32,512 nt of DNA from a virus: positions 1 through 32,512 of IMG/VR virus record IMGVR_UViG_3300012930_000010. One strand, 5' to 3'. The notes below the pieces were generated by a model. It worked only from the letters and a program-made list of their open reading frames with translations, had not been told where the DNA came from and searched no databases. A program made the translations under genes and the position numbers. This document shows positions 2,918-27,449 of this stretch, one piece after another (within the stretch, counting starts at the first letter, position 1; every line of letters begins with the position of its first letter).

Positions 2918-3490
2918 TTAGACCCCCACCTTGGAATCAGCGCTGGATATGGGCGGGGCTGTGGAAATACCGGGGCTAGGTGCGCTTGTTGGAATGCGCG
3001 ATTCCAGCCCCAGAGTGTCTGTTGGACTAAGACTCCACAGTTTTCGCATGCCGCGCACCGCGAGCGGCCGATCGAGCCGCTGGACGTCGCGCAGGATCCA
3101 TGCCCAGCGGCCGCCATCGTAATTGCCGAATTGTTTTTCCAGTTCCCAGCCATGTTTCGGCTGAAACCACTCTTTGAGTTGTTTCGCTTTGTACTCCACG
3201 AGCGGCGCCGGGAGGCAGGCGACTAACTGACAGACGCACACCACCGCGCCGCGGGGCAACGGGGTTTGTACTTGCAAACCCCGTTCTGAAAAAGTCAGCG
3301 GCGGAAACTCGAATCCCTTACTCCCCAAAATGAACGTGACGCGAGACAGCTCCGTGGGATCCGGCTGGCGCAGCGCCGCATGAATCGCCAGCAGCCCGCG
3401 GTAGCTGGTGTACCAGTCGCGCGTCTCCACTTCTTTCCAGCCGTAGGCAATCAGCGAAGCGTACGGCTCGTGCAGCGTCAGCGCCTTCAT
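2918..3490 (-). CDS. ASCH-domain protein, 190 aa
   Basis: MKALTLHEPYASLIAYGWKEVETRDWYTSYRGLLAIHAA...GAVVCVCQLVAC is the typical ASCH N-terminal pattern. ATGA overlap with the upstream gene. It contains hairpin copy A. Confidence 0.7.
   Translation of the reverse strand: MKALTLHEPYASLIAYGWKEVETRDWYTSYRGLLAIHAALRQPDPTELSRVTFILGSKGFEFPPLTFSERGLQVQTPLPRGAVVCVCQLVACLPAPLVEYKAKQLKEWFQPKHGWELEKQFGNYDGGRWAWILRDVQRLDRPLAVRGMRKLWSLSPTDTLGLESRIPTSAPSPGISTAPPISSADSKVGV
3258..3293 (+). repeat. TACTTR-loop hairpin element, copy A (AACGGGGTTTG-TACTTG-CAAACCCCGTT ctg AAAAA)
   Basis: Perfect 11-bp stem. Near-identical over about 33 nt to copy B. Lies inside the ASCH ORF, antisense to it. Confidence 0.8.
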
Positions 3491-7705: not shown

Positions 7706-9178
7706 TCAGAGGTCGTCGAGTTCGATCCAATATTGCGCGCTCGGGTTAGACTTCCACTTCTTCTCGTAGCGGTACGTCGTTGCGCGGCTGATGCCGACTT
7801 CCATCGCCAGGTCTGCGCCTGGCCTCATGCCGTTTCCGAAGTGTTCGAAACACGCCTGGATCTGCGCGTGTCGCGACGGCCGAGTGAGCCAGCAGGCCGC
7901 GTCGCGGTCCGTCGTCAAGCTCATCTCGAAGGGCACCAGCCATCGCGGCTGTTTGCTCTCTCCGCGAATTTTGTCGATGTCCACCAGCACGCGAAGTTGC
8001 TCTTCCCTTTTGTAGCCAGGCGGCCGCGTCAACTTCATCACGAAGTCCAGCATGTCCTCTTTTTCAGAGCCGCCGCGCTGCTCTCCGCCTTTGCCGGCGT
8101 GATGCAGGTAGATCACGGAGATCCCGCGTTGGTTTAGATCGAGAAACCATTCCGTGAGAGTGGCGGTGCGTTCCCCTTCACCTTCCTGCGACGTGGGCCA
8201 GAGCGTGGAAAGATTGTCTAGGATCAGAACTTCGTAGCCGCCGGCAAACAGCCGCTCCTCGATGATGCGGCGGTCGCGCGGCGAATTTATTTTTGGGCGC
8301 CAGCGCTTTTGGTAGTCCTTACACATCGTGCCGAAATTCTCTGCGCTCGGCACATCACTGCCGTGACCGCGAGCGATTTGTTGCGCGCGTTTCTGAATCT
8401 CTGAGCCGTGCATTTCCCCGTAGATGTACAGCACGCGATAGGCGCGGGAGATCGGCCAGTTCCCTCCCGCCCCGTTCACCCCACCAAAAAGAGTGGGACA
8501 ACCGAGCGCCAACTGCATGGCGATCTCCGTAGTGATAAAAGTTTTTCCCAGCCCGCGCCACGCCCAAATTTCTCCGGTGCCTCCCACAGTGAGCAGCGGC
8601 TCGATCGCGTATTCGAGCTTCGGCATCTCCATCGTGAGCAAATCGCGGAAGCTGACAACCACGGACGGATTGGCGGTGTTGGTACTTTGCTTCGAAAAGG
8701 TTTCCAGTTGGTTGGCCAGGTCGTCCGGCGAAGTGTAGCCCTCGATCGCGTCGGTCTGGATTTTATGCGTGTGATCGATGATGCGGCGGAGGCGGGATTT
8801 TTCTTTGACGATCTTCACGTAGTACGCGACATTGCTCAGCCGCGGCATGCCGTCCATCAGCGAAGCGATATATTCGCCGCCGCCGGCAGCATCGAGCTCG
8901 CGATTCTGCATGAGGTTCTCGACAATACTGACCGCTTCGATGGGCTGCTGCGCGTCGTCCAGGAAAAGCATGTTGCGGAACACGCGGCGGTTTTGTTCCA
9001 GGAAGAAGTCTTCGGGCACGAGCGTTTCTCGCGCCGTCTTCATCGGGGCGTTGTTGGCGCCGTTGTTGTCGATCAGGATCGCGCCGAGGATATTTCTCTC
9101 CGCGTCTAAATTCGAAGGCAGCTTTTTGGCGATGTCGTTGGGAAGAGGATGTGAGCGTTGAAAGGCGACGGTGGCCAT
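7706..9178 (-). CDS. Replicative helicase/initiator: DnaB N-terminal domain, RepA-like (AAA_25/RecA-type) ATPase, C-terminal HTH; 490 aa
   Basis: AERNILGAILIDN...NRRVFRNM...EYIASLMDGMP...YYVKIVKEKSRLRR is DnaB-N-like. Walker A is WRGLGKTF and Walker B is VLILDNLS. The C-terminus carries GISRATTYRYEKKWK. ATG at 9178 is preferred over the TTG at 9190. Confidence 0.85.
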   Translation of the reverse strand: MATVAFQRSHPLPNDIAKKLPSNLDAERNILGAILIDNNGANNAPMKTARETLVPEDFFLEQNRRVFRNMLFLDDAQQPIEAVSIVENLMQNRELDAAGGGEYIASLMDGMPRLSNVAYYVKIVKEKSRLRRIIDHTHKIQTDAIEGYTSPDDLANQLETFSKQSTNTANPSVVVSFRDLLTMEMPKLEYAIEPLLTVGGTGEIWAWRGLGKTFITTEIAMQLALGCPTLFGGVNGAGGNWPISRAYRVLYIYGEMHGSEIQKRAQQIARGHGSDVPSAENFGTMCKDYQKRWRPKINSPRDRRIIEERLFAGGYEVLILDNLSTLWPTSQEGEGERTATLTEWFLDLNQRGISVIYLHHAGKGGEQRGGSEKEDMLDFVMKLTRPPGYKREEQLRVLVDIDKIRGESKQPRWLVPFEMSLTTDRDAACWLTRPSRHAQIQACFEHFGNGMRPGADLAMEVGISRATTYRYEKKWKSNPSAQYWIELDDL

Positions 9179-9180
9179 AG

Positions 9181-9228
9181 TTAGCGGCAACTTTTCCTCT
9201 CGCGCGGCTTCTCCGGAGTTGCCGCTAA
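9181..9228. promoter_or_regulatory. 11-bp perfect inverted repeat (TTAGCGGCAAC / GTTGCCGCTAA, 26-nt spacer) abutting the helicase start codon
   Basis: Arms at 9181..9191 and 9218..9228. In the minus-strand mRNA the stem closes 2 nt before the ATG, and the purine-rich AGAGGAAAAG sits in the loop. Confidence 0.6.
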
Positions 9229-9522: not shown

Positions 9523-10935
9523 CTAGTTCGGCCCCACGGTCACTTCGTCTTCGGTCATGTACGCGCGCGCGTCCGCCAGCACTTCGTGCCAGCGCGGATC
9601 TTCCACCAACAGTTTTAATACGGGATCCTGCGAAAAAAACTGCGTGATGGTTTGCTCGGGATAGTTCACCAGGTCCTTGGCGAGATCCGGCTTCACGTCT
9701 TCGAGAAACGTGGCGATGGCGGAACCGCTCGCGCCGTAGCGCATCATGTTCACCACTTGCACCTTCATCCCTTCGTCGTATTGCTCCTGCGAGACGGGAG
9801 CTGGCGCGGGCTGCGCCGCGGGCATCACTTCGACGGCCGGTGCGGATGCGGCGCCGTCGCGCGGCTCCAAATGCAATCCGCCTTCGACATGAATCGCTGG
9901 CGCTGGCGGAGCGGCGGCGGCCGGTTGCGCTGCTGGCTGTGCTTGCGGCTGCTGTCGGTCGATCGGCACAACCCGCAACGCTTCCGCAGTGCGTGCCCGG
10001 GCCTGCGCTTCGTTCGCGCGGGCTTGCGCCACGTTCGCCGGCGACGTTTGTTTGAACGTGTCGAGAATATCCGGCAAGTGCTGCGTGACGGCCTGCACCG
10101 CCGCGGCTTTCCAATCTTTCGGCTCTCCGCCGCCGTTACCACGAATTTTTTCCACCACTTCGAAGATGGCGGAAAGTTTTGTCAGCTCTTCCAAGGGGTT
10201 CGGAGGATTCAGCAACTTTTCGACGAGCTTCGCAATGAGCGCATCGCCGAGCGAACCTAAGCCGCCGCCGGCAGCCGGCGCGCGCAGATTCGCGAGTTTC
10301 TCCGCCGCCGAGAGCAGAGCATTCACTTGCGCCGTTGGGTCCGCGGCGACCGGAGTTTGTTTCGTGACGATCTCCATCGCGCGTTCGCTGGCCTTCGTGA
10401 GCATATCGATGACGTGCTCCGAGCCGTTGGATTGTCCCTGATTCGATTCCCTGCTGCGTTGCAGTTCTTCGCGCAGCACGGAGATAAATTCTTTCTGGAA
10501 GTCCGCGTTCCCGCCAAGGCCGTTGCCATTGCCGTTGGTCGTTGCCGGCGGGATCTCGCGGCTGCGGTCATAGATCGGATCGCCTTCGATGTCAAAATTG
10601 TGCGTCTTGAAATAGTGGCCGTTCTTGCAGAGGTCCATGCGGAATTTTCCGCCGCCCCAGCGCTTCTTCACGTCGGCATACGTGATCGGCGCGAAGAACG
10701 TCCAGAGATAACCCTTCGATCCGGCGACGCCAGGCACTTTCGGTTCCAGGCGTTGGAGCTCGAGGTGATAAATTTTCTCCCACTCATTGCCGGGAATCTT
10801 CATCAAGTCGCTGATAAACCAGCCCGGCTCTTTTTCTTCACGCTCTAGCGGCTTTTCCGGCTCCGCTGGCGTCTCGGGATTCTGCGGAGCGAGATTGATG
10901 ACGGTCGTTGGCTGCGTCTGCAGGCGTTTTGGCAC
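9523..10935 (-). CDS. Large hypothetical protein, 470 aa, with Ala/Pro/Gln-rich low-complexity middle regions
   Basis: Long ORF with a GTG start at 10935, the first gene of the leftward arm. No motif I can name (...RWGGGKFRMDLCKNGHYF...). Confidence 0.7.
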   Translation of the reverse strand: MPKRLQTQPTTVINLAPQNPETPAEPEKPLEREEKEPGWFISDLMKIPGNEWEKIYHLELQRLEPKVPGVAGSKGYLWTFFAPITYADVKKRWGGGKFRMDLCKNGHYFKTHNFDIEGDPIYDRSREIPPATTNGNGNGLGGNADFQKEFISVLREELQRSRESNQGQSNGSEHVIDMLTKASERAMEIVTKQTPVAADPTAQVNALLSAAEKLANLRAPAAGGGLGSLGDALIAKLVEKLLNPPNPLEELTKLSAIFEVVEKIRGNGGGEPKDWKAAAVQAVTQHLPDILDTFKQTSPANVAQARANEAQARARTAEALRVVPIDRQQPQAQPAAQPAAAAPPAPAIHVEGGLHLEPRDGAASAPAVEVMPAAQPAPAPVSQEQYDEGMKVQVVNMMRYGASGSAIATFLEDVKPDLAKDLVNYPEQTITQFFSQDPVLKLLVEDPRWHEVLADARAYMTEDEVTVGPN

Positions 10936-11229: not shown

Positions 11230-12264
11230 ATGAAGCTCACACGCATTCCGCATCTCGAAGGCGATCCGGGAGTTCAGCAGACTATCCGGCAGATGTGCCG
11301 GCTGATCGCCAAGGGCAAACAGGATCCGCAAGTTCACGAACTCGCGGCGCAGATTCTCCGCTGCGCGCGAGTGGCGGCCTACGATTGGACCGGCGAAGCG
11401 GAAGCCATCTTTCATTGGTGGCACAAGAACATTCGCTTCACGCGCGACGTGGACGGCCACGAGACGCTGCACGCGCCGGCGGACATCTTGCGGCTGGGGA
11501 TCGGCGACTGCGACGACTTTACGGTGGGAATTTGCTCGCTGCTGAAAACCATCGGCGCGGATTGCCACATCGTGACGATCGCTGTGGATCCCGAGGGCGA
11601 GTTCTCGCACGTGTATCCGGAAGTGATTTTGCCCAGCGGCCGCTCGATCGCACTGGACGCGGCGCGGCAATCCGCGGCATTCGGGAAATCTCCGGAGCGT
11701 TGGACGCGCAAACGGATCTGGTCTGTGGATTCCGGGGAGTACGCTGACATGGGCCGCCTCGGCAGACTTTCTTCTTTGGGCGACGGCCGTCAAAGCATCG
11801 CACCAGGCCAAGGACCGCAGGGCGCCTGGCGCGCCAATGTCTATCCGCCATTCCGCGTCGCTGCTCGCGAAATGACTGGCAGCTACCTCAGCGCTTTTCC
11901 CGTCGCGCCCCCACACCAACAATTCAAGCGGCCGCCGATTGGCTTTGGAAATTACGGCGTGCCGGCCGCGCGTCGCGCACTCGCGGATTTCAGTCGCGGC
12001 GATCTGCGCCGAACGCTCGGCGACGTTGATTGGGGCGCCATCACGCAAGCGATCACCGCCGGCACCACCGGAGCGGCGAACATCATCACTGCGGAGCGCG
12101 CTTCGCCGTACAACTTAGTTCCCACCACGTCGATGGCGCAGGGTGCGCGTTCTCCAATCCTGCCTCTGACTCAGGTCGCCGCATCGCCATTCGGTTCGAT
12201 CAGCCCGACGATGATTCTGCTCGGGCTCGGCGCCGTCGCGTTGATCGCCGCGGAGAGGCGCTGA
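11230..12264 (+). CDS. Transglutaminase-like (papain-fold Cys protease superfamily) protein with a C-terminal TM anchor, 344 aa
   Basis: GIGDCDDFTVGICSLL (Cys), FSHVYPEV (His), ALD (Asp). DMGRLGRLSSLGDG motif. C-terminal ISPTMILLGLGAVALIAAERR. Confidence 0.75.
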   Translation: MKLTRIPHLEGDPGVQQTIRQMCRLIAKGKQDPQVHELAAQILRCARVAAYDWTGEAEAIFHWWHKNIRFTRDVDGHETLHAPADILRLGIGDCDDFTVGICSLLKTIGADCHIVTIAVDPEGEFSHVYPEVILPSGRSIALDAARQSAAFGKSPERWTRKRIWSVDSGEYADMGRLGRLSSLGDGRQSIAPGQGPQGAWRANVYPPFRVAAREMTGSYLSAFPVAPPHQQFKRPPIGFGNYGVPAARRALADFSRGDLRRTLGDVDWGAITQAITAGTTGAANIITAERASPYNLVPTTSMAQGARSPILPLTQVAASPFGSISPTMILLGLGAVALIAAERR

Positions 12265-12974
12265 TGCCGTACCTGGTCGCAGCTCGCAAGCCGTCGATGG
12301 GCCGCATGGGCATCGTCATGGCCAACGGCGCTGCCACTACTGCTCGATCGAACATGATTTTGTATAGTCGTCCACGTCCGCTGCCGGTGGGCGACGGATC
12401 CGTGGGACCGATCGTGACTGGTCCTTACACCTACACTCCCCCAACCGGGAGCTTGCCGCCGAATCCGCCATCGATTCCTTTGCCACTGCCAGGTCCCCTG
12501 CCCGTGTGGCGTCCTCCTCCCCCGGTGCTGGTGACTTCCGCTCCGGATCTGCCCACTTTCAACACCGGCAGTCCTGTTCCGGCCGGTTATCCCACCAGCC
12601 AAATTTTTGTCGATCCGAATGGCGGCTTCTGGCAGTACAGCGCTTCGCAAAATAAATGGATGAATGTTGGCACATCGTACAACACCGGTGCGACATCGAT
12701 TCCGCCGGCAGTGCCCACAGGATCCACACCGAGCGCGCCAACTTCTCTCACCACGCCGACAACGGCGCCGGCGCCAGTGAATGTCAGCGTAGCCGCGCCG
12801 AGCTCCTCGTATCAGGAAATTTTGGATTGGCTCCAGGAAGACACGCTTGCATCAACCATCGGCTTCACTTCGATTCCCAATTGGATCGTTGTGGCCGCTG
12901 CAGGCGCTTTGGCCTGGAAATTTTCGCAGCCGACTCCTCGCAGCCGAAATCCTCGGAAAAGGCGGAGGCGCTAG
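12264..12974 (+). CDS. Proline-rich tail-anchored membrane protein, 236 aa
   Basis: ATG overlaps the upstream TGA, with GGAGAGG upstream. MPYLVAARKPSMGRMG... C-terminal NWIVVAAAGALAWKF followed by a basic tail. Confidence 0.75.
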   Translation: MPYLVAARKPSMGRMGIVMANGAATTARSNMILYSRPRPLPVGDGSVGPIVTGPYTYTPPTGSLPPNPPSIPLPLPGPLPVWRPPPPVLVTSAPDLPTFNTGSPVPAGYPTSQIFVDPNGGFWQYSASQNKWMNVGTSYNTGATSIPPAVPTGSTPSAPTSLTTPTTAPAPVNVSVAAPSSSYQEILDWLQEDTLASTIGFTSIPNWIVVAAAGALAWKFSQPTPRSRNPRKRRRR

Positions 12975-12975
12975 T

Positions 12976-13006
12976 CGCCCGTACTTACGGGCGCCAGCAA
13001 AACAAA
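12976..13006 (+). repeat. TACTTR-loop hairpin element, copy F (CGCCCG-TACTTA-CGGGCG ccagc AAAACAAAA)
   Basis: Begins 2 nt after the TAG stop of the upstream gene. The A-rich tail runs into the next ATG. Confidence 0.7.
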
Positions 13007-13690
13007 ATGTACTTGATGGATTCCAGCGCGCCGGCAGTGAGCAACACGAAGTGGCGTCTTCGCGGCATGGGCCGCCTCGGACTCTCTCCGGTGCGTTTGC
13101 CGAATCTCGGCGCATCGAGCACTGCGCAAAGCTGGCGCATGCGCGGGCTTCGCGGACTGGGCCGTCTCGGCGACGCCGGCAATTGCGTCTACTACGGCGC
13201 CGATGGCGTCACCGTTGAGTCGATCGACACTAACACCGACGTGGTGGAGTGCGCGGGCAACGGCGGCGCCTGGAACGCTGTACCGATTTTGAATATGCCA
13301 GTGATTCCTGGCGTGCAAAATCCGAGTCCGGTTGCTGGCAGCGCTTCGAACGGCCGCATCACTACGGTGCCGGCCACAACTCCTTCGAATAATCCGCTCG
13401 ACTATAGATCACCGCAAGAAGCCATCGCGGCCAACTTGGATCCCAATGCAGTGATGGCGGCCTGGACGAAAGCGCTCGCGCGTTTTCCAAGTCCACAAGC
13501 GGCCATCTCCGCGGGCGTTCCTCCTGGTGTCGTGAATCAACTTTGGCAGCAGAGCCAGGTGAACGCCGCAAACACCGCCGCGGCTTCGAAAGGATCGCTT
13601 TTCGGGTCTGGAACTCTCGGTTACGTAGCGATGGGGGCCACCGCATTATTGCTTCTCTCCGCTCTGGCCGGCGGAAAGGGACGGCGCTAA
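13007..13690 (+). CDS. Tail-anchored membrane protein, 227 aa, motif-family member
   Basis: MYLMDSSAPAVSNTKWRLRGMGRLG...MRGLRGLGRLGD... C-terminal LGYVAMGATALLLLSALAGGKGRR. An alternative ATG lies at 13016. Confidence 0.75.
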   Translation: MYLMDSSAPAVSNTKWRLRGMGRLGLSPVRLPNLGASSTAQSWRMRGLRGLGRLGDAGNCVYYGADGVTVESIDTNTDVVECAGNGGAWNAVPILNMPVIPGVQNPSPVAGSASNGRITTVPATTPSNNPLDYRSPQEAIAANLDPNAVMAAWTKALARFPSPQAAISAGVPPGVVNQLWQQSQVNAANTAAASKGSLFGSGTLGYVAMGATALLLLSALAGGKGRR

Positions 13691-14017
13691 ATGTACGTCA
13701 CCGATAGCGGATGCCCCACCGGCTACTTTCCCATCAACACAAAATGGGGAGGGACTTCTACGCTGAGCGGAATTTTGCCGGGTGGCGGCCTGCGCGCGCT
13801 GGGTTATTTCCGGCCAAACTTCGCGATGGCGCGCGGCATGTATCCAGGCGGCGGGCATTCCTGGAATTCGATGGGCCAACTGGAAGTCGATCCGACGATT
13901 CTGGGTTTGGGAATCGGCGCTCTGGCGCTCGGCGTGTTTCTGTTGGGAAGAAAACATCCGAAGAGGTCGCGCCGCCGCGGCCGTGGGCGGCTACGCAGAG
14001 CACTTGCGGAGAGTTGA
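13691..14017 (+). CDS. Small tail-anchored membrane protein, 108 aa, motif-family member
   Basis: ATG directly after the TAA. MYVTDSGCPTGYFPINTKWGG...GLRALG...SMGQLE. TM ILGLGIGALALGVFLLG followed by an Arg-rich tail. Confidence 0.7.
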   Translation: MYVTDSGCPTGYFPINTKWGGTSTLSGILPGGGLRALGYFRPNFAMARGMYPGGGHSWNSMGQLEVDPTILGLGIGALALGVFLLGRKHPKRSRRRGRGRLRRALAES

Positions 14018-14039
14018 GAAGCTAATGAATCGAGAACTT

Positions 14040-14153
14040 CTATTTCTTGGCAGTCGAGGAGTTTCGAAGCCATCGCTCAATCTGCATCCCTGCATAGATT
14101 ATGGATGGTACCAGAACAAAAATTATCAGCACCGCCCACATGCGCACTGTCAT
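14040..14153 (-). CDS. Possible antisense micro-gene: 37-aa hydrophobic peptide MTVRMWAVLIIFVLVPSIIYAGMQIERWLRNSSTAKK
   Basis: ATG at 14153 preceded by AGGTAAGGA. It fills a 165-bp lower-GC gap in the plus-strand operon. The competing plus-strand ORF 14025..14180 has lower GC3. Confidence 0.3.
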   Translation of the reverse strand: MTVRMWAVLIIFVLVPSIIYAGMQIERWLRNSSTAKK

Positions 14154-14182
14154 GTCCTTACCTCTCTGGGGGAAATCTAGTC

Positions 14183-14899
14183 GTGTATCTACTCCCCAAT
14201 TCGGCTGCTGTCAATAACCGCAAGTGGAATCTCGGGCGGATGGGCTGCAACTGCTCTTCGCGCGGCATTGGCGTGCCGCCACAGAAGCGTATGGGCCAAC
14301 TCGGCGATACTCCGGGCGTTCCCGCGGGGACTGTTCTCGCCTACACCGCGAGCTGGAAAGACTCTCCGCTTCAAATCAACACTCCCGATGCGGTGCAAGC
14401 CACGATCCAGGCGAACCTGGCGCAGCAATACGGCATCGTCATCGACAATCAGGTCCACTCGCAGAGCGACTATCTACATTTCAGCGGTCCGCAGAGCATG
14501 ACCTTGCAGGTGCACACCACGAGCGACTACGGCGCTCCTGGCGACATTCAATCGCTCATCGATGGCGCGATCTACGCCGCTACAAATGCCCACGTAGCGC
14601 AAGGCATGCCTTCCTCCACGATTCGCATCGTGCAAGCGGCCGCGCCTGGTCAAGTATCTCTGACTGCGCAATTGCCGGCCAGCACCAACGCCGCATTTAT
14701 GGCCGCCCAAGCCGGCTACGATGACGCGGTGGCACGTGGCGACATGGCCAGTGCCGCTCAGTTTGCCGCGCAGATCCAAAACATTACAGGCACCAACCCG
14801 TCCGGTGCGGGCGCCGGCGTCATGGCGTGGCTCTCGAACAATTGGGTATGGCTTGCTGCTGGCGGCGTCGGACTGGTCGTCGTGAAGGAGCTGCTGTGA
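14183..14899 (+). CDS. Tail-anchored membrane protein, 238 aa, motif-family member
   Basis: GTG at 14183 with GGGGGA upstream. (M)YLLPNSAAVNNRKWNLGRMG...KRMGQLGD has an N-terminus homologous to 13007. C-terminal WVWLAAGGVGLVVVKELL. Confidence 0.7.
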   Translation: MYLLPNSAAVNNRKWNLGRMGCNCSSRGIGVPPQKRMGQLGDTPGVPAGTVLAYTASWKDSPLQINTPDAVQATIQANLAQQYGIVIDNQVHSQSDYLHFSGPQSMTLQVHTTSDYGAPGDIQSLIDGAIYAATNAHVAQGMPSSTIRIVQAAAPGQVSLTAQLPASTNAAFMAAQAGYDDAVARGDMASAAQFAAQIQNITGTNPSGAGAGVMAWLSNNWVWLAAGGVGLVVVKELL

Positions 14900-15510
14900 A
14901 GAAAGCCTTGCTCACTTCCCTGCTCTTCTCGCTGCTGTCGCCGCTGCCAAGTCTTTGTCAACGTTCGCCCGTAAGTACGGGCGCGGCGCAGCACTGCGGT
15001 GTGGAACGCTGGCCGGTGAAGACACTCACGGATCCCGCTGGTGAAACGGTTGCCTCCGCTTCCCCCACCCTGGGAACAGTCGCGGAGCTCGTGATGGTGG
15101 GCGCCCCTTCGCGTAAGCAATTGCTTGCCGCCACGAGCTCGCGATTCGCGCACGAGAAAATCGTGTACCGCGTCTCCGTCGCCGTCATCGGCGACAAAGA
15201 GGAAGCGGACTCGGATTTCCATATCGTGCTCGCCGCGCCGGGCAACCACTCAACGATGCTGATCGCAGAAATTCCCAGCGGCTCCTGCACCGGCCCGCAG
15301 CGCGCAAACTTTTTCAACGATCTTCGAGCGCAGTTCGCGAAGGACTTCGGGAAGCCTGCGGCCGGGAAGCTGCGGAGACTGGCGCAACCTGTAGCCGCGT
15401 GCGTAACGGGAGTGGGCTTCTTCGATTTTCTGCACGGGCAGGATGGCGTCGCGCCGAACGGTTTCGAGCTGCATCCGGTGCTCTCGATCGTGAAAGGACC
15501 GTGCCGGTGA
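14896..15510 (+). CDS. Secreted protein with a signal peptide, 204 aa
   Basis: GTG at 14896 in a GTGA overlap with GAAGGAG upstream. (M)KKALLTSLLFSLLSPLPSLC...GVERWPVKTLTD... Confidence 0.7.
   Translation: MKKALLTSLLFSLLSPLPSLCQRSPVSTGAAQHCGVERWPVKTLTDPAGETVASASPTLGTVAELVMVGAPSRKQLLAATSSRFAHEKIVYRVSVAVIGDKEEADSDFHIVLAAPGNHSTMLIAEIPSGSCTGPQRANFFNDLRAQFAKDFGKPAAGKLRRLAQPVAACVTGVGFFDFLHGQDGVAPNGFELHPVLSIVKGPCR
14966..14983 (-). repeat. TACTTR-loop hairpin element, copy G (exact reverse complement of the 18-nt core of copy F)
   Basis: cgcccgtaagtacgggcg, inside the coding sequence of 14896..15510, with no A-run. Confidence 0.65.
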
Positions 15511-16418
15511 GCGCGCTAGCCACAATGCGACTGCAAAACCCCGCGCGCGGCAAACGTAAGGCTCCCGTTTCCGGGGCGCGCGGGAAGAGAAATGTTGGCG
15601 AGCTGCTCATCTTCGGCAACCCGCGCCGGAAAGGCGCGTCTGGAAATAAGTCGAAAGGTTTCGGCAATCACAAGCCCGGATGCCCGTGCAAATTCTGCGA
15701 TCGAGCGGCGAAGCTGCAAAGCGGGGAGCTGAAACCGCCGAAGCTGCCAAACCGCAAGAAGAAAAACTCCAAGAAGCTCGACGCCCAGCGTGGAGCTCGA
15801 GAGCGCTCCAGCCGGATCCGTACGGCGCGCCTCAATCCGAAAAAGAAACAGAAGAGATCCACGCGCGGCCGAAGACGTGCGGACCGGCGCAACAATCCCA
15901 GCGAAACGAAACAAGCGGTGCGGCTCTTCCAGGGCTTCCACGGTCACGATCCCAAAGAGATCGCGGAGAAGCACGTCTCCGCCGCGGTGCGCCTCGATTA
16001 CACCGCCCTGGGCGACCTGAAGTACCTGGTGGTGGAAACGCCGCTCGGCAAAGAAGCGACGTTCACCTTCGAGGATGACGGCGTGAAGCTGGCGAGCTCG
16101 CCGGATGGCAAACAGCTCTACTGCATCGGCGGCGACCAGAACATTTTGCCGCTGCTCGATGAACGTTCGCGAGAAAAAGATTTCATCGATCTGGGCGACG
16201 GCCTCGAGGTCGCGTATCTGGCGCGCAAAGTCCACGGAGAATTCCGCCCCGTCGAGTACTTCCACGAATTCGGGGAACTGAACGGCGCGCACCCGCGGCT
16301 GATGTTCGACAAGCTGCGCAAAAACATTTTCTTTATCGGCGGCGACTACTTCATCGACGTGAACATGCGCGCGCCAGGCACGCCGCTCGGCAAAGTTTCG
16401 CCGGGCATCGAAAACTGA
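15507..16418 (+). CDS. Protein with a highly basic N-terminal ~130 aa (repeated basic-NP motifs) and a conserved-looking C-terminal domain, 303 aa
   Basis: GTG at 15507 (GTGA overlap) or ATG at 15525. LQNPARGKRK, FGNPRRKG, RLNPKKKQKR, RRNNPSETKQAVRLFQGFHG...YFHEFGE...FFIGGDYFID... Confidence 0.7.
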   Translation: MSALATMRLQNPARGKRKAPVSGARGKRNVGELLIFGNPRRKGASGNKSKGFGNHKPGCPCKFCDRAAKLQSGELKPPKLPNRKKKNSKKLDAQRGARERSSRIRTARLNPKKKQKRSTRGRRRADRRNNPSETKQAVRLFQGFHGHDPKEIAEKHVSAAVRLDYTALGDLKYLVVETPLGKEATFTFEDDGVKLASSPDGKQLYCIGGDQNILPLLDERSREKDFIDLGDGLEVAYLARKVHGEFRPVEYFHEFGELNGAHPRLMFDKLRKNIFFIGGDYFIDVNMRAPGTPLGKVSPGIEN

Positions 16419-16434
16419 GAGAGGGAGAAAACTT

Positions 16435-16581
16435 ATGGCTAAATTGAAAACAGAATCGATCTCACCGACCACCCCCGCAGCGGCGCCGAAGGACTCTGCT
16501 CCTCAAACGCATTCGAAAGAGTGTGGCGACGTGGGAATCACCGGAGAGCACGGCGACTTGGGAACGAACGCCGCGAAATAA
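16435..16581 (+). CDS. Small hypothetical protein, 48 aa (not in the ORF track)
   Basis: ATG at 16435 with GAGAGGGAGA 5 nt upstream. MAKLKTESISPTTPAAAPKDSAPQTHSKECGDVGITGEHGDLGTNAAK. The stop lies in the stem-loop CGCGAAA-TAAA-TTTCGCG. Confidence 0.5.
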   Translation: MAKLKTESISPTTPAAAPKDSAPQTHSKECGDVGITGEHGDLGTNAAK

Positions 16582-16602
16582 ATTTCGCGATCGACACCAT
16601 GC

Positions 16603-17487
16603 ATGTACGGCACACCACAATTCGCGCAGCGAGGGCCAGGCACCTATCTAACGGGTGCGCCGCTCTCGCGTTCACCGCGTCGGCGGTTGCGGCGCTTCTC
16701 CGGATTCGGCTCGCTGACTCCGGACCAGGCCACGGAACAAATCTTTCCGGCGGCGCAGGTGAGGAGCGGAGCGGGACACAACCAATCGATACGCGACCAA
16801 ATCCTGCAATCCGCGAATGCCGGCCAGATCCTCAATGCCCAGGGCTCGCCAGCGTACATGCCGGGGACGGGCCAATGCTCCGGCGCGAGTCTACTGAAGC
16901 CGGCGATCACCGGAACGGTGGGGAGTCTGGCACTGCACTTTGCTCCGCAAGCCTTTGCGGCCGGGCCGATCGTAGGCGGCATCGTCGTGGGCATTGCGGC
17001 AATCAGCGAACTGTTTACCGTGATCTTCGGCCATCACGCCGCAGCTATCAAGAAAGAGCAGAGCGTCCTTTGCGCGGCGACGCCGGCGGCCAATCAATCG
17101 CTTCAGCTGATCGACCAGGCGGTGCAGCAGGGGCAGGCCACTCCGCAGGACGCCATCACGGCGCTGGGCAACGTGGTGTCCGGCTTTCAGCAAGCCGTCG
17201 CGTCGATCATTCATGGCGCCAACCCGATGTCCAGCGGCGAATGCAACGCGGCGTGCGTGATTCTCTCCGAACTGCGCGCCATCGTGCTGCTGAAGCAATC
17301 GCAGTATCAGGATCTCGCCGCGCAGCAGTCCACCAACCCGGTAGGCGCAGCGCTCGCGCCAGTTACAGCCGCGTTCGCGCCGGTCAGCCAGGCGGTGCAA
17401 TCGGTGCAAGCGGCCGCCGCGTCCGCGGGCTTGCCCGCGTGGCTGGTGCCGGCTGCGGGATTTTTTCTTTTGTGGAAGTTGCTGTAG
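16603..17487 (+). CDS. Membrane protein, 294 aa, motif-family member
   Basis: MYGTPQFAQRG...RRLRRFSGFGSL... Internal TM AAGPIVGGIVVGIAAISELFTVIF and C-terminal LPAWLVPAAGFFLLWKLL. The overlapping track ORF 16521..17495 is an Arg-rich shadow frame. Confidence 0.75.
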   Translation: MYGTPQFAQRGPGTYLTGAPLSRSPRRRLRRFSGFGSLTPDQATEQIFPAAQVRSGAGHNQSIRDQILQSANAGQILNAQGSPAYMPGTGQCSGASLLKPAITGTVGSLALHFAPQAFAAGPIVGGIVVGIAAISELFTVIFGHHAAAIKKEQSVLCAATPAANQSLQLIDQAVQQGQATPQDAITALGNVVSGFQQAVASIIHGANPMSSGECNAACVILSELRAIVLLKQSQYQDLAAQQSTNPVGAALAPVTAAFAPVSQAVQSVQAAAASAGLPAWLVPAAGFFLLWKLL

Positions 17488-17565: not shown

Positions 17566-18297
17566 ATGAGCACAACGCAACTCACGATGACGCCGGCGGA
17601 CCTCTTCAAGTACCAGAATGATTTGGTGCGCACCGGGAAACATTTGCCGCTGGGCCGCATGCGCACCATCGCGGTGGGGCCGTGCGACACCTACAAGCCT
17701 CCGGCGGACGATCCCATCATCAGCGGCTACGGATCGCAGCCGCAGCGCAACGCCCGCGGCCGCATGCTGGATTTCAGCGGTCAATGGTTGCCGATCGCCC
17801 AGGCCGCGGACAAGTCCATGATCCTGGTCACTGCGCCGCTGATTCGCAAAGACGGCTACGTGGGATTGCCAGACCTGGTGGATCCGCTGTGGCGCGCCGC
17901 CGACTACACCGAAGAAGAAGCCGCGAATCCCGATTGCGATGCGGACTGCCGCAAGCAGTGGGACATCACGCGGACAGGCGAAAAAGTTCAGCACGTGCAC
18001 ATTCAACTGCGCGCCGGCAAAGACACGCCGCGCATGATTCCGCAGCGCCTGGAAGACCGCACCAACGATAGGCTGCAGGGCACAAACTTTCTCGTCTTTC
18101 AACCCGTGCTGCGCATCACCTACCAACCGGAAGAACTGAAAGCCGGCGACCAGCACAGCTTCAAGCCCGCGGAGTGGAAAATCGAATTTCGTCCGGACAT
18201 GGGAGGAGTGCACGCGGCATTCCTGGTGGATCCCACAAACGGCGAGTGTCACTTTTTTGGCGGCGTCCCGATTTTCGGAGGCGACACCAAGGGGTAG
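17566..18297 (+). CDS. Hypothetical structural-arm protein, 243 aa
   Basis: ATG with AAGGAGA upstream; clean ORF; no recognisable motif. Confidence 0.75.
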   Translation: MSTTQLTMTPADLFKYQNDLVRTGKHLPLGRMRTIAVGPCDTYKPPADDPIISGYGSQPQRNARGRMLDFSGQWLPIAQAADKSMILVTAPLIRKDGYVGLPDLVDPLWRAADYTEEEAANPDCDADCRKQWDITRTGEKVQHVHIQLRAGKDTPRMIPQRLEDRTNDRLQGTNFLVFQPVLRITYQPEELKAGDQHSFKPAEWKIEFRPDMGGVHAAFLVDPTNGECHFFGGVPIFGGDTKG

Positions 18298-18333
18298 TGG
18301 GGTTTGTACTTGCAAACCCCGCGCTGAAAAAAA
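18297..18333 (+). repeat. TACTTR-loop hairpin element, copy B (GTGGGGTTTG-TACTTG-CAAACCCCGC gctg AAAAAAA)
   Basis: 10-bp stem with one G-U pair. Starts at the last base of the upstream TAG stop. Confidence 0.8.
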
Positions 18334-18401: not shown

Positions 18402-19247
18402 ATGCCAAAAGTAAAGCTTGTGAATCCATCCCGGACGCGCCGCCGGCGCGCGTCCCGCAACGCGCGAAAGCGCCGCATGCCCGCAGGGCTTAAACGCTAC
18501 TGGGCAAGCGTGCGTCGAGCCGCGGCGCAAAAAAATGCTGGCGGAGGACACATGAAAACGAAAAGAAGGCGGCGTAGCCGAGCCCGTGCCTCGCGCCGGC
18601 GCAAGAGCTATCGTCGTCGTAGTAACCCGATGTATGCCTTGGCGGCTCCCAGGCGGCGGCATCACCGTCGCCGCGGCAGCAGCCATCGGCGGCATCGCCG
18701 GCGCAATCCTGGACTGCAATCCTTCACCAGCGGCGGCATGCTGCAAACCGTTGGCGGAGCGGCGATCGGCTTCTTCGGAAGCAATGCGCTGCCCGCGCTG
18801 ATTCCGCAGCTCGCGCAGTACAACACCGGCGTTACCGGCTATGCCATTCAAGCCGTCTCGGGCTTGGCTCTGAGCTGGGGATTGAAGCGCTTCCTCGGCA
18901 AAGGCTGGGGCACCGGCGCCCTCATCGGCACCGGCCTCTCGATCCTGCTGCGCATCGTGAAGGACCATGCGATGAGCACCGGCTCGGTCGCTTCCGCGGC
19001 GATGAGCGGAGACCTGGCGTACTACGTGGACGACCGCTTCCCGTTCGCGCAGGGCGCTGGCGGGCCATACGGCAACTTCCCCGGCAACGCCTCGCTTGCC
19101 AATCCGCCCTTCCCGGCCACGTCGGCCGCGGCGGTGCGCGCTGGCGCGGCGGCCGCTTCGGCGGCTTTGCCGGCTGCGGCAATGCATGGCATCGCCACGG
19201 GCCGCTGGGGAGTCAATTCCGCCGGCGACATGAGCCGTTGGACGTAG
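18402..19247 (+). CDS. Protamine-like Arg-rich N-terminus (~110 aa, basic-NP motifs) fused to a Gly-rich membrane domain, 281 aa
   Basis: AAGGGGAAGAG upstream. LVNPSRTRRRRASRNARKRR...RRRSNPMY...HRRHRRRNPGL, then GGAAIGFFGSNALPALIP and GWGTGALIGTGLSILLRIV. Confidence 0.75.
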   Translation: MPKVKLVNPSRTRRRRASRNARKRRMPAGLKRYWASVRRAAAQKNAGGGHMKTKRRRRSRARASRRRKSYRRRSNPMYALAAPRRRHHRRRGSSHRRHRRRNPGLQSFTSGGMLQTVGGAAIGFFGSNALPALIPQLAQYNTGVTGYAIQAVSGLALSWGLKRFLGKGWGTGALIGTGLSILLRIVKDHAMSTGSVASAAMSGDLAYYVDDRFPFAQGAGGPYGNFPGNASLANPPFPATSAAAVRAGAAAASAALPAAAMHGIATGRWGVNSAGDMSRWT

Positions 19248-19313
19248 CTTCTCTCTTTCTTTCCGGTGCGGTGCGAGATGGGCGCCGCACCGGAGAGTGA
19301 TCTTCTCGGGTTT

Positions 19314-19347
19314 CAGGGTTTGTACTTACAAACCATGAGCCGAAAAA
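19314..19347 (+). repeat. TACTTR-loop hairpin element, copy C (CAGGGTTTG-TACTTA-CAAACCATG agccg AAAAA)
   Basis: 9-position stem with one mismatch. Shares the 5' flank CGGGTTTCAGGGTTTGTACTTACAAACC with copy D. Confidence 0.7.
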
Positions 19348-19419: not shown

Positions 19420-20187
19420 ATGAGAAACTTCGAAGCCGCCGGACGCGCAGGCAAGAGTCATCGCCACGTTCGGCGCATGGAGAAAATCAGTTCGTACGAG
19501 CTAGGCAGGCCCCACGCGCCGCGGTTGCGGAATCCCAACACGGGCATTCCGGAATTCGTGGTGTGGAGTCTGTTCGATATTTACGCCGTCGCTGCCGGCG
19601 GCACGATGGGCAAGCTGTCGCTCTACACCGTGCAGCAGGGCGCCAACTACAACTTCAACGGCGTGACCGCGTTCGCGAAAGGCGAGCAGCACGTTTCGCT
19701 GGTGCAGCCTGGCCAGCTCGAATCGAGCTACACGTTCATCGTGCGCGCGCTCTCCGTCTACGTGCAGGGTCAGCAGGGCACCGCGCATCCCGCGGTGCAT
19801 CGTGAAGATCTCGAAAACCTGCTGGGCTCGCTGGTGAAGTTCCGCATCAACAAAAAAGAATACTTCATCGGCATTCCGGCATGGCTGCCCGGAGGCGGCG
19901 GCCAGGTGACGCTGGGCTTCGGCTCGCTCACCGTGCCCACCGCCAGCTTCACCAACACCAACGGCTGGCAGGAGACCGATAACGTCTACGCGCTTCCCGG
20001 CGGGCAGTACATCAATCCGCAGGAAACGTTTGACTGCATCATCGATCCATCCACCAACGCGCTCGTTGGCGGCGGCACCGGCGCTCCCACCGCGCTGGCC
20101 GCGGCCGGCTTCCCCACTGGCGTACCCGCCGCGGGACTCTGCGCGTGGTTCCGCCAGGATGGGCAACTGATTCGCGTCGCGCAGTAG
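19420..20187 (+). CDS. Beta-rich protein, candidate major capsid protein, 255 aa (alternative start 19477)
   Basis: ...YTFIVRALSVYVQG...LVKFRINKKEYFIGIPAWLPGGGG...ETFDCIIDP...LCAWFRQDGQLIRVAQ. Alternating beta pattern, followed by a hairpin. The functional call is inference only. Confidence 0.6.
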   Translation: MRNFEAAGRAGKSHRHVRRMEKISSYELGRPHAPRLRNPNTGIPEFVVWSLFDIYAVAAGGTMGKLSLYTVQQGANYNFNGVTAFAKGEQHVSLVQPGQLESSYTFIVRALSVYVQGQQGTAHPAVHREDLENLLGSLVKFRINKKEYFIGIPAWLPGGGGQVTLGFGSLTVPTASFTNTNGWQETDNVYALPGGQYINPQETFDCIIDPSTNALVGGGTGAPTALAAAGFPTGVPAAGLCAWFRQDGQLIRVAQ

Positions 20188-20649: not shown

Positions 20650-21135
20650 ATGACTCAGACTTGTCAAGCTTGCCGGGGAAACGCGATCGTCGCCACGCCC
20701 TCGGGAGGCGTCATAAAGTGTCCTGTCTGCCAGGGCATAGGGCAAATTTCCGGCGACCTGACCGACCAGCTTTTCTGGTATTTGTTTTCGCCGGCGCAGC
20801 TCAGCGCCAACCAGCAAGGCGTTTTGAACACCATCACGGTGGACAACGACGCGGATTTCCGCATTCGCTGGCTGATCGTGAGTTCCACCGGGCTCTTCAG
20901 CGTGGAGATCAAGGATCTCTATGCCGGCGGCGCTCCCTGGATGCCCACGCCCGTCAACGGGGAAAACTTTGCCGGCACCGCGCAGTTGCCCTTCGTGCTG
21001 CCAAAGCCTTACCCGGTTTACAAAGGCTCGTCGCTGCAGGCGAAGTTCAACGACCGCAGTGGCGCGCCCAACACGATTCAGCTCTGCTTGGTGGGCTACA
21101 AGATCGACAAGCTGCCCTCCGGCCCGAGCAACTGA
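20650..21135 (+). CDS. DnaJ-type zinc finger (CxxCxG...CxxCxGxG) fused to a beta-sandwich domain, 161 aa
   Basis: GAGGGAGA upstream. TCQACRGNA...KCPVCQGIGQ, then DADFRIRWLIVSSTGLFSVEIKD...FAGTAQLPFVLPKPYPVYKGSSLQAKFNDRSGAPNTIQLCLVGYK. Confidence 0.75.
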   Translation: MTQTCQACRGNAIVATPSGGVIKCPVCQGIGQISGDLTDQLFWYLFSPAQLSANQQGVLNTITVDNDADFRIRWLIVSSTGLFSVEIKDLYAGGAPWMPTPVNGENFAGTAQLPFVLPKPYPVYKGSSLQAKFNDRSGAPNTIQLCLVGYKIDKLPSGPSN

Positions 21136-21214: not shown

Positions 21215-21811
21215 ATGCAGGAATTGCTGGAACTGGACGCGGAAACAGCCGGCACGCCAGTTTCTAAAGTTTCAGGCGGGCAAGCGGCTGACCAGGAGAT
21301 CCACACGACGATGATTCCTGCACAGCCAACGCCGGCCGATCCCATCGCGCAGCTTCTCACCTACCGCAGTTTTTACGGCAGCGAAGATCATCTGCCACTC
21401 GAAGCGCTGCTCGATGAGATCGACGCCATCGTGCCCTATTGGTTTCCGCTTTACGATTCCGCTACTTCTCTGCCCTCCGGCTCGCTCGGCGCGCAGCAGA
21501 CTGACCGCGGCCAGGTGATTGCCCAGGAAGATTGCTGGATCTGGTCGCTGATCGCCAGCGCGAGCGTTGCCGGAAATAGTTTCGTGGTGCAGCTCTTTGA
21601 CACCGAGCGCGAAATAACTTTCATGGACGAAGACGTGTTCGTAGGCAACGCGGCCGGCACAGCGCTTCGCCAATTCTTTTTGAAGTCTCCGATCCATATT
21701 CCCATCGGCGGGCAAATCGAATCGCGTGTCATCAACCTGGCGGCTGTGGCCAACGCCATCCAGATTATCGGTTTCGGCGTGCGGCCGGATTCGCGAAAGA
21801 AGATCACCTAG
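21215..21811 (+). CDS. Beta-sandwich protein, paralogue of the C-terminal domain of 20650..21135, 198 aa (alternative start 21311)
   Basis: QEDCWIWSLIASASVAGNSFVVQLFDTERE...NAAGTALRQFFLKSPIHIPIGGQIESRVINLAAVANAIQIIGFGVR aligns position-for-position with the 20650 protein. Confidence 0.7.
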   Translation: MQELLELDAETAGTPVSKVSGGQAADQEIHTTMIPAQPTPADPIAQLLTYRSFYGSEDHLPLEALLDEIDAIVPYWFPLYDSATSLPSGSLGAQQTDRGQVIAQEDCWIWSLIASASVAGNSFVVQLFDTEREITFMDEDVFVGNAAGTALRQFFLKSPIHIPIGGQIESRVINLAAVANAIQIIGFGVRPDSRKKIT

Positions 21812-21828
21812 GGGAAAGGAAACGGGTT

Positions 21829-21861
21829 TCAGGGTTTGTACTTACAAACCCTGACATAAAA
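21829..21861 (+). repeat. TACTTR-loop hairpin element, copy D (TCAGGGTTTG-TACTTA-CAAACCCTGA cat AAAAA)
   Basis: Perfect 10-bp stem. The A-run abuts the ATG at 21862, with no Shine-Dalgarno. Confidence 0.8.
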
Positions 21862-22392
21862 ATGTCCACAATGTCACCCACAGTCTTCCAGGGCCGCCGC
21901 TTCGTGAAGAAGCCCAATAGCGCGATCCTCACGCCTTCCTGCGCCGTCACCGTGCCGCAGCTCCCGGTGCAGAACTTCATGCCGCCAGGCGGCAAGCCGT
22001 TTGAGTTTGCAGCCGGCGTGGCGCTGCCGGCGATCGGCGCGACGGTCACGGTGCTGAGCTTCACCGTGCCGCGCGGCCAAAACGGTTTCGTCCGGCGCAT
22101 CGCCAACGTGTTCGTGGGCGGCGGCTTCACGGATTTTTCCGGCTCGATCGTGTGGCAAATTCTGCTGGACCAGGTGAAGAACGTGGTCGCTCCGGGCTTT
22201 GACAATATCGTGGCATCACTCGGCGCGGTTTCGAATCCATCGAACATCGACGGGATCCACGTGATGGAGAATTCCACCGTCGCCCTGATCGTGAAAAACA
22301 TTTCGGTGGTCGTGAGCGGCCAACTGATTGGTGGCCGTCTCGGTGGTTCGTTCCACCCAGTTCCGCAGGAACCGCCGAACCTCGCGTTCTGA
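21862..22392 (+). CDS. Beta-rich structural-like protein, 176 aa
   Basis: ...TVTVLSFTVPRGQNGFVRRIANVFVGGGF...IVWQILLD...GIHVMENSTVALIVKNISVVVSGQLIGGRLGG. Looser resemblance to the two upstream paralogues. Confidence 0.7.
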   Translation: MSTMSPTVFQGRRFVKKPNSAILTPSCAVTVPQLPVQNFMPPGGKPFEFAAGVALPAIGATVTVLSFTVPRGQNGFVRRIANVFVGGGFTDFSGSIVWQILLDQVKNVVAPGFDNIVASLGAVSNPSNIDGIHVMENSTVALIVKNISVVVSGQLIGGRLGGSFHPVPQEPPNLAF

Positions 22393-27155: not shown

Positions 27156-27449
27156 ATGGCTCTCGCCCGCTACTCCGCAAAAATCGATTCCGACAATCGC
27201 GTGCGCGTGATCCACATCTTCGTGGGCGATAGCGAGAGCGCCGTCGACGCTGCCCAGCAAAAACACGCCGATGGCTGCAAAGCCTACGGCCCGGCCGTCA
27301 AAGAAGAAAAAACCATCGACATCGACGTGGAAGTGGACGACCTGCCGGAAGGCGACGAAGAGTCCCTGCTGGAATTTCTGGAGATCGATCCCGGCGATGA
27401 ACCCGAAACCGCCGATGACGATGACGACGACGAAGAGGACGACGAATGA
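27156..27449 (+). CDS. Small acidic protein with a poly-Asp/Glu tail, 97 aa
   Basis: ATG at 27156 with GGAAAGAG upstream. MALARYSAKIDSDNRVRVIHIFVGD...ETADDDDDDEEDDE. Confidence 0.65.
   Translation: MALARYSAKIDSDNRVRVIHIFVGDSESAVDAAQQKHADGCKAYGPAVKEEKTIDIDVEVDDLPEGDEESLLEFLEIDPGDEPETADDDDDDEEDDE

Follow-up and report, generated by a model that had tools for sequence, protein, structure and literature searches.

What does a short peptide do that stands at the beginning of several consecutive, otherwise unrelated viral proteins which are all anchored in a membrane? This question is raised by positions 11,230 to 17,487 of the virus record IMGVR_UViG_3300012930_000010 from IMG/VR, the whole of which (32,512 nucleotides, hereafter the window) was analysed. 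A row of plus-strand genes encodes proteins with similar N-termini and C-terminal tail anchors there, and the original prediction, made from the letters of the DNA, had taken the shared Gly/Leu peptide either for a targeting peptide or for a common maturation-cleavage site by which enzymes and membrane proteins are loaded into a virion or an internal membrane. We know of no sorting or processing signal that the membrane proteins of prokaryotic viruses with an internal membrane have in common and by which they could be selected for this membrane. We take the region for the module of membrane proteins in a tailless virus of about 32 kb; these proteins follow one plan, with a leader, a variable body, and a C-terminal anchor. 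Concerning the leader, we tentatively favour the reading that it is a virion-targeting signal ending in a processing site, which would probably be cut by g1, an enzyme of the same module. It resembles a signal for assembly or processing, of a kind not known so far from membrane-containing bacterial viruses. With a length of about 20-50 residues and a simple, searchable motif, it marks the whole set of these proteins, two enzymes included.

Leader-bearing proteins

Throughout the family of related viruses, the leader comprises three parts, namely an M-(x)-Y-φ start, an Arg-rich stretch, and the motif [LM]-x-G-[LMI]-G-[QD]-[DS]. It is 15 to 60 residues long and is carried by five to seven membrane-anchored proteins per genome. 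The start can be specified as M-(x)-Y-[LVYF], in many cases with a P after it (MYLLP, MYLMP, MAYL, MPYF, MNYY, MYLW), and an N-x-K-W element is limited to one clade. In the window, as in the close relatives L001 and L004, the motif is mostly found in a shifted register, [LM]-G-R-[LM]-G; the shift is visible even inside a single column of g1, where some members have DMGRLG and others DMRGMG. The consensus K-W-x-L-G-R-M-G, which had been proposed originally, describes this clade and does not extend to the family as a whole, to which the form given above applies.

Within the window, all leader-bearing genes lie on the plus strand, and every peptide quoted for them in the original prediction was found in its place, including the one of the enzyme g1 (DMGRLGRLSSLGDG). 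The gene g2 (12264-12974) encodes a Pro-rich, tail-anchored protein with an RKRRRR tail and the leader MPYLVAARKPSMGRMG (12264-12311); its orthologues start with MYLQGHRRMNGMGL, MAYLVRGAMQGLG, or MYLLPSG…KWRGLGI. The equally tail-anchored protein g3 (13007-13690) possesses the leader MYLMDSSAPAVSNTKWRLRGMGRLG (13007-13081) and a second copy, RMRGLRGLGRLGD (13136-13174), and its orthologues retain MYLLP…KW… as well as LRGLGD/ALGQD. The short protein g4 (13691-14017; 108 amino acids, aa) begins with the leader MYVTDSG…NTKWGG, followed by GLRALG, and contains the peptide NSMGQLEVDP (13865-13894), which directly precedes the transmembrane (TM) helix (13895-13948) in the window and is followed, after the helix, by a basic helical tail. 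In g4 orthologues this pre-TM site reads LSGLGQ, LSGMGDD, or MSGLGQD and is situated about 8 residues ahead of the TM helix.

The tail-anchored protein g5 (14183-14899) starts with a GTG codon; its leader, (M)YLLPNSAAVNNRKWNLGRMG-CNCS-…QKRMGQLGD, spans 14183-14308 and is followed by the conserved body PGVPAGTVLAYTASW. The GTG start at 14183 is supported by its orthologues, which have ATG at the same residue, and most of the 54 homologues of g5 start with MYLM/LP…NNRKWNLGR[ML]G. The public gene call for g5 (P0237, 219 aa) begins at an internal Met and omits the GTG-initiated leader start of 19 residues, such that automated annotation hides the signature. Leaders of the g5 type further exhibit a conserved CxC (GCNCS, GCDCP, GCGNCPSKGLGCASC) between two Gly-φ-Gly sites (window 14246-14281; L017 4933-5646; L035 4577-5083), which might bind a metal, form a disulfide, or be acylated.

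The protein g8 (16603-17487) has three hydrophobic segments and the leader MYGTPQF…RRRLRRFSGFGSL, followed by a conserved TPDQA… body; its orthologues begin with MYLAAQ… or with MYLVPNS…RRRRLLGQGG, and …RRRLGMGRLG is found as well. Distant from the others lies the gene of an SLT_3 lytic transglycosylase with a C-terminal TM helix (27446-28018; Pfam PF18896, E 5e-20), hereafter SLT, whose N-terminus is MRRPMRPTRRLGDLGLL. The peptide RRLGDLGLL noted earlier is present in it, the motif stands directly before the catalytic domain, and relatives retain an N-terminal φ-G-x-L-G-D (TLGVLGDLASIMA, RLGMLGDLASIMA), with TLGVLGD or RLGMLGD before the catalytic domain.

Judged from the window, g4 and g8 are weak members of this group, and it is mainly their orthologues that secure their place. 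A single C-terminal TM anchor had been ascribed to almost all of these proteins; g8 has its three hydrophobic segments, and the anchor of g2 is weakly hydrophobic. Statistically, the motif is only weakly associated with a C-terminal hydrophobic segment within this single window, and the outcome depends on the threshold (Fisher p 0.03 to 0.23). The anchors themselves are patterned (12199-12261, 13616-13687, and their equivalents in L017, L021, L022, and L044): G-I-S-T-x-T-L-L-L or G-[IV]-P-N is followed by the helix and by G-R-R.

The position of the motif within the proteins is conserved, too. In g5, g4, g8, and SLT it marks the junction between leader and body: the conserved body PGVPAGT-L-Y-A-W of g5 begins within 5-8 residues of it, and in g8 it precedes the conserved TPDQAAQ. 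In g1 it flanks the catalytic core and the helix ahead of the anchor.

Enrichment and conservation of the motif

For comparison, 58 related metagenome loci were gathered, and the module was curated in 11-12 genomes with capsid proteins 49-90% identical to that of the window. A six-frame translation of the window contains [ML]G.[LM]G nine times, in all nine cases in coding frames and seven times in proteins named in the original prediction. The five module proteins of the window exhibit 10 motif matches, compared to 0.71 expected from residue shuffles, none of 5000 of which reached 10; overall, the motif is about 10-fold above the expectation from composition. Across 11 genomes, φ-x-G-φ-G occurs 46 times (3.5±1.9 expected) and φ-G-x-φ-G 24 times (3.6±1.9 expected), and across 12 genomes G[LMI]G[QD] occurs 30 times (2.4±1.5 expected), whereas the control G[AVFWY]G is no more frequent than expected (49 vs 47.6); as homologous sequences are not independent, these counts are descriptive and do not represent p-values. 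The adenain-type patterns [MIL].G.G and [MIL].GG are found 86 and 51 times, respectively, with 28.5 expected for each. Chance or composition as the source of the motif is ruled out by the shuffles together with the G[AVFWY]G control.

The motif profile, anchored on G-φ-G outside TM helices (n=75 instances), is Arg-rich upstream, with L or M at position -2 in 42 of the 75 instances and R or S at -1, followed by G, then L, M, or I, and G again; D or Q stands at +3 in 29 instances (16 and 13, respectively), and D at +4. The motif is conserved in orthologues of over 12 diverged genomes, and in every related genome examined, the orthologues of g2, g3, g4, g5, and g8 keep both the motif and the M-(x)-Y-φ start. 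Enrichment beyond composition and presence in orthologues, the two points on which the original prediction could have failed, thus both speak in its favour.

Two explanations of the conserved N-terminus could be set aside. Sec, Tat, and lipoprotein signal peptides are rejected, as the leaders are without a hydrophobic segment (h-region), hydrophobic stretches being found only C-terminally and the residues after the motif being polar or acidic; nor does the LGC/CxC segment provide the context of a lipobox. A constraint on RNA or on translation initiation behind M-Y-L is unlikely, because synonymous codons vary (TAC/TAT; CTG/TTG/CTA) and the translationally uncoupled g8 possesses this start as well.

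The leader as a portable module

The proteins that share the leader are otherwise unrelated, as had been supposed. In profile-profile comparisons (hhalign) of the families of g2, g3, g4, g5, and g8, matches are confined to the C-terminal anchor or to the first 40-80 residues, and the bodies exhibit no detectable mutual homology. The anchor match of g2 with a g3 variant reaches 95% probability over 40 residues; the leader matches of g3 with g5 and of g5 with g8 reach about 18% (18-19%). Furthermore, several of the 54 homologues of g5 match it only in the leader of about 45 residues (68-80% identity over 17-20% of the query), and continue with other bodies and then the usual anchor. The same leader is thus combined with a g3-like Cys-rich insert (P0277), with a coiled-coil body that contains further internal motifs (P0288), or with other bodies (P0289, P0290). 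The leader therefore behaves as a portable module, and no other observation argues as strongly for a separate function.

The membrane-anchored enzyme g1

The first gene of the module, g1 (11230-12264, plus strand), encodes a membrane-anchored enzyme of transglutaminase fold with a length of 344 aa, which consists of a core (residues 1-175), a disordered tether (178-322), and a C-terminal TM helix (326-342). It matches Pfam PF01841 with 30.1 bits (cut-off 23; E 6e-7), and this domain is annotated in 116 of its 117 homologues, all of which belong to this virus family; a profile search of the PDB leads to 3ISR (E 3e-4). The triad Cys94, His127, and Asp143 is invariant in 39 diverse homologues. 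In the AlphaFold2 (AF2) model, the predicted local distance difference test (pLDDT) exceeds 90 for residues 1-175, whereas residues 178-322, inside which both motif sites are situated, are of low confidence. The first of these sites, DMGRLGRLSSLGDG (11746-11787), follows directly after the catalytic core and corresponds to the family column D-φ-x-G-φ-x-G (e.g., DMRGMGN, DVQGLNG). The second, RRTLGD (12007-12024), is situated in the tether immediately ahead of a conserved helix, which the TM anchor follows; hardly any of the 39 homologues lacks the form R-x-[LM]-G-[QD]-D (e.g., RGLGQD, RRLGQD).

The structural neighbours of g1 in Foldseek comprise the putative cysteine proteases 3ISR and 3KD4, PNGase, LapG (4u65_E), TglA, and the virus-encoded pseudomurein endoisopeptidases PeiW/PeiP, so that the fold allows for a protein-processing protease as well as for a cell-wall peptidase. 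In Pfam/PHROGs scans of 40 proteins, g1 is the only candidate peptidase of the genome, and these scans revealed no protease of clan CE (adenain/Ulp1 fold). Another protease was likewise sought and found neither by these scans nor by PDB profile searches of g7, g9, and a 470-aa protein, three proteins which have no PDB relatives and no invariant set of Cys, His, or Ser hinting at a protease.

Possible function of the leader

The conserved N-terminus might direct or tether the tail-anchored proteins, among them two enzymes, to the interface of capsid and membrane in the forming particle. The Gly-φ-Gly element would then be a maturation cleavage site, and the corresponding protease would be the membrane-anchored g1 of the module itself; relative to its anchor, g1 is located on the side where the motifs are, and its tether contains two copies of the motif. 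Papain-fold and transglutaminase-fold peptidases often need Gly near the scissile bond (P2/P1'), as is the case for PLpro (LXGG), C39 (double-glycine leaders), and LapG (small-residue site), and this preference is consistent with cleavage by g1; that g1 is tethered on the side of its anchor where the sites lie and itself carries such sites also argues for it as the protease. Concerning cleavage as such, a short Gly-containing site across many unrelated virion proteins is a hallmark of viral maturation proteases, and the motif is situated exactly at the junctions of leader and body. It also fits the rule of the adenovirus protease, (M/I/L)XGX↓G, according to which pVI is cut at IVGL↓G (PMC4246237).

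Several observations weigh against such a processed targeting signal. The fold of g1 also matches PeiW/PeiP and PNGase, so that g1 may be, like SLT, a cell-wall enzyme for entry or exit. The leader retains M-Y-L, N-x-K-W, and, in g4, YRPNQA, and such strong conservation is odd for a propeptide that is discarded. In the g3 proteins of L035 and L040, three to four motif copies are found about 36-40 residues apart, each of them after a helix, which is more reminiscent of a repeated binding unit. The alternation of Q and D after the motif, together with the register shift (MGRLG vs MRGMG), implies a loose recognition rule, and the motif is sparse in some members (e.g., L022, L054). In the AF2 model, the tether of g1 is not docked in the active site, the low confidence of residues 178-322 making the model uninformative on docking. 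Finally, it is by gene order only that the leader-bearing proteins are assigned to the virion.

Some of these points would be expected if the leader were a docking peptide that is never cleaved. In this case, its Gly turn (hydrophobic-Gly-hydrophobic-Gly) and M-Y-φ N-terminus would occupy a pocket that recurs across the inside of the capsid shell or on a scaffold, and the membrane vesicle, together with the enzymes anchored in it, would thereby be fastened to the capsid. A portable leader on unrelated bodies fits with this, and so does the conservation of the extreme N-terminus and of the leader content; several regularly spaced copies per protein, each after a helix, would suit avidity for a symmetric shell, and since all bearers are membrane-anchored, a capsid-binding peptide would explain how membrane and capsid are tethered. 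The targeting peptides of encapsulins are likewise short Gly/Leu motifs (GSL-type); however, the shell is jelly-roll-like here and not of the HK97 fold of encapsulins, and docking requires neither the exact position at the junction nor the match to a site of Cys proteases. We consider uncleaved docking possible, if rather doubtful, and regard it as the main rival of the favoured reading. That there is no dedicated signal at all is unlikely: in this case the shared ends would be remnants of tandem duplication, and the Gly-φ-Gly/Arg composition would reflect flexible membrane-proximal linkers of paralogous small membrane proteins. The adjacent, translationally coupled genes, the GISTxTLLL and G[IV]PN shared by the anchors, the low hhalign probabilities of the leaders, and the weak association of motif and C-terminal hydrophobic segment in the window would agree with such an origin. 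It does not account, however, for an enrichment that is specific to L, M, or I between the glycines (G[AVFWY]G being at expectation), for a motif and start which are kept while the bodies diverged beyond detection, for the re-assortment of the leader onto other bodies, or for the conserved positions of the motif in the non-paralogous enzymes g1 and SLT.

Two further explanations concern the enzymes. If the module acted on the host envelope (in lysis, in blocking entry, or in remodelling the cell wall), the motif would bind a host component, and g1 and SLT would be cell-wall hydrolases, in line with the similarity of g1 to the PeiW/PeiP endoisopeptidases and with the presence of SLT and a muramidase-like protein in the same genome; tail-anchored proteins and proteins with basic tails are also common among lysis factors. 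Yet in the structural gene order of all relatives the block stands after the early genes and ahead of those for the capsid, five to seven such proteins per genome are typical of internal-membrane viruses and not of lysis cassettes, and a separate lysis-like cluster exists at 27.4-30.1 kb, all of which makes this explanation quite improbable. Alternatively, g1, with its transglutaminase fold and intact triad, might be a true transglutaminase that cross-links the membrane proteins to lysines of the capsid, with G-φ-G-Q as glutamine donor, and Gln does follow the motif in many instances (e.g., GLGQD, MGQLG). A donor should be invariant, however, and Q occupies this position in only 13 of the 75 instances compared to D in 16, with D in g3, g1, and SLT of the window; the idea is thus largely rejected and there is hardly any chance that it is correct. 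The reading of the leader as a targeting signal with a processing site remains the one that we favour, with the reservations given above.

Capsid candidate and virus family

The window begins and ends with an exact direct repeat of 123 nucleotides (1-123 = 32390-32512), which indicates that the genome is complete; it has a length of about 32.39 kb and would be circular or terminally redundant. Its G+C content is about 60%, and tRNA genes were not found in it. A minus-strand block (1-10.9 kb) encodes two DNA methyltransferases, an ASCH protein, a DnaB-like helicase, and the 470-aa protein of unknown function. From 11230 on, a long plus-strand block follows which is hardly recognised by Pfam and PHROGs, the only matches being the transglutaminase-like core of g1, SLT_3 at 27446-28018, and a weak muramidase-like match at 28158-28763; the structural proteins are all without a match in PHROGs. 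In the Pfam/PHROGs scans of the window proteins, neither a terminase nor a portal or prohead protease was found, nor was there any match to the HK97 fold or to encapsulins. A packaging ATPase of the FtsK/HerA type was not found either, the only Walker A in six frames being that of the DnaB-like helicase (7706-9190, minus strand). The Arg-rich proteins g7 (around 15522-16418) and g10 (18402-19247) could condense DNA, similar to the situation in the archaeal virus SPV1, which is without such an ATPase.

The candidate major capsid protein (19420-20187, plus strand; 255 aa) stands outside the motif family and is of interest here as context. A single jelly-roll fold is predicted for it: its AF2 model is a beta-sandwich (pLDDT 72), and its top Foldseek matches are jelly-roll capsid proteins, among them that of SPV1 (6oj0, E 3e-3) and those of satellite viruses and CRESS viruses (to E 4e-5), with TM-scores of only 0.2-0.4. 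We regard the element as a tailless virus whose capsid is of the jelly-roll type, the modelled capsid fold being the weakest link in this chain. The predicted jelly-roll capsid protein, the block of tail-anchored proteins, and SLT with its C-terminal TM helix together form a setting that fits an internal-membrane virion, so that the particle probably contains an internal membrane. Downstream of the capsid-like gene, two beta-rich proteins are encoded (20650-21135 and 21215-21811) which are paralogues of each other (hhalign 98%, E 6e-14) and show no detectable relation to the 255-aa capsid candidate; the former has an additional, zinc-finger-like N-terminal segment (CxxC…CxxC). They are probably further capsid or vertex proteins.

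Concerning the distribution of the family, the capsid candidate has 119 homologues, many of which are found on contigs of 29-34 kb from soil and peat metagenomes. By comparison, related contigs in IMG/VR number only two, and a search of a phage collection for relatives gave no match. A description of this virus group or of the motif was not found in the literature either. The family thus appears to be undescribed and essentially uncharted, and the leader flags it where current tools hardly see it. One member with the full module (L064; JGI Ga0533580_0000039) is embedded in a contig of 240,334 bp, from which it follows that some members are probably integrated proviruses.

Some other features of the window deserve mention. 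The gene at 14896-15510, situated between g5 and g7, encodes a protein with a signal-peptide-like N-terminus (MKKALLTSLLFSLLSPLPSLC…); as the closest relative, L001, has no such gene at this place, it was probably acquired as an accessory gene. The 470-aa protein (9523-10935, minus strand) is conserved and possesses a central region rich in Ala, Pro, and Gln, and in several relatives there are helical K-E-[LM]-G-[LV]-[IL]-G repeats. These matches fall within a helical repeat, and some relatives lack them, so that we do not count the protein as a member of the motif family; profile searches revealed no relatives in PDB or Pfam, and it could be a scaffold-like or assembly protein. Finally, an element of 41 nucleotides is present in four copies (3253-3293, 18291-18331, 19307-19347, and 21823-21863) and comprises an 8-bp stem, GGGGTTTG-TACTTG-CAAACCCC, followed by CTGAAAAA. 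Three of the copies are situated in gaps just upstream of g10, of the capsid-like gene, and of the gene at 21862, and relatives seldom have the exact core. The element may form an RNA hairpin between cistrons or serve as a site of regulation.

Comparison with known systems

The logic of the leader is that of adenovirus cleavage sites, of T4 capsid targeting, of encapsulin peptides, and of double-glycine leaders. It is a member of none of these systems, since their defining enzyme or shell folds were looked for and differ from those found here.

In its combination of a conserved N-terminus and a site, the leader parallels the capsid-targeting sequence of phage T4 (IPI-III, Alt), an N-terminal peptide, likewise conserved and including Met1, which is borne by unrelated cargo, guides it into the particle during assembly, and ends at a consensus processing site. 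T4 has a head of HK97 fold and a scaffolding core, and its prohead protease removes the targeting sequence at an (L/I)xE site. In the viruses studied here, by contrast, the capsid is jelly-roll-like, the cargo is membrane-anchored, the site is Gly-based, and no homologue of the prohead protease was found. Encapsulins, too, mark diverse proteins for one shell by a short Gly/Leu peptide, which can occur in several copies; their peptides are mostly C-terminal and their shell is of HK97 fold, whereas the present peptides are N-terminal, are borne by membrane proteins, and would serve a shell of another fold. Double-glycine leaders (C39) and the substrates of LapG share with the present leader an N-terminal, often helical segment that ends in a Gly site for a peptidase of papain or transglutaminase fold, but they serve export or the release of adhesins, and their site is GG or, for LapG, TAAG. 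The signals of sortases and exosortases resemble the C-terminal anchors in their tripartite shape (G-I-S-T or G-[IV]-P-N, TM helix, RR); among the genes of the virus itself, none is sortase-like or exosortase-like.

With PRD1-type phages and SPV1 (Portogloboviridae), the virus has in common a tailless particle plan in which small membrane proteins are numerous, and it encodes a lytic transglycosylase of the virion type that is anchored by a C-terminal helix (cf. P7 of PRD1-type phages). With SPV1, whose jelly-roll protein is the best PDB match of the capsid, it shares the lack of a recognisable packaging ATPase and candidates for basic, DNA-condensing proteins. There is no sequence homology to either of them, and the structural match is weak (TM-scores 0.3-0.4). 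To our knowledge, a shared leader motif is known neither from PRD1-type phages nor from Portogloboviridae. The jelly-roll-like capsid, the missing packaging ATPase, and the Arg-rich core proteins resemble the archaeal portogloboviruses, a similarity which, if true, matters for virus evolution.

As for the putative processing site, adenoviruses offer a parallel. The adenovirus protease (AVP) cuts pIIIa, pVI, pVII, pVIII, pX, and pTP at sites of the form (M/I/L)XGG↓X or (M/I/L)XGX↓G. One short Gly-containing motif across unrelated, presumably virion-borne proteins is also what we find here, with φ-x-G-φ-G fitting the second AVP rule exactly, and Arg-rich, core-like proteins are encoded as well (g7, g10). 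Unlike in adenoviruses, an adenain of clan CE is missing, the sole candidate protease is of transglutaminase fold, the substrates are membrane-anchored, and L, M, or I is needed at the putative P1, with Q or D favoured afterwards. It is conceivable, though as a whole rather speculative, that a widespread and unclassified family of soil bacterial viruses uses a membrane-tethered Cys protease of transglutaminase fold to mature its internal-membrane proteins in a manner similar to adenoviruses, the shared targeting leader being cut off at [LM]-x-G-[LMI]↓G in the protease and in five to seven tail-anchored proteins. If true, this would be the first system of propeptides and a maturation protease in a membrane-containing prokaryotic virus, with a site specificity convergent to that of adenain on a different fold.

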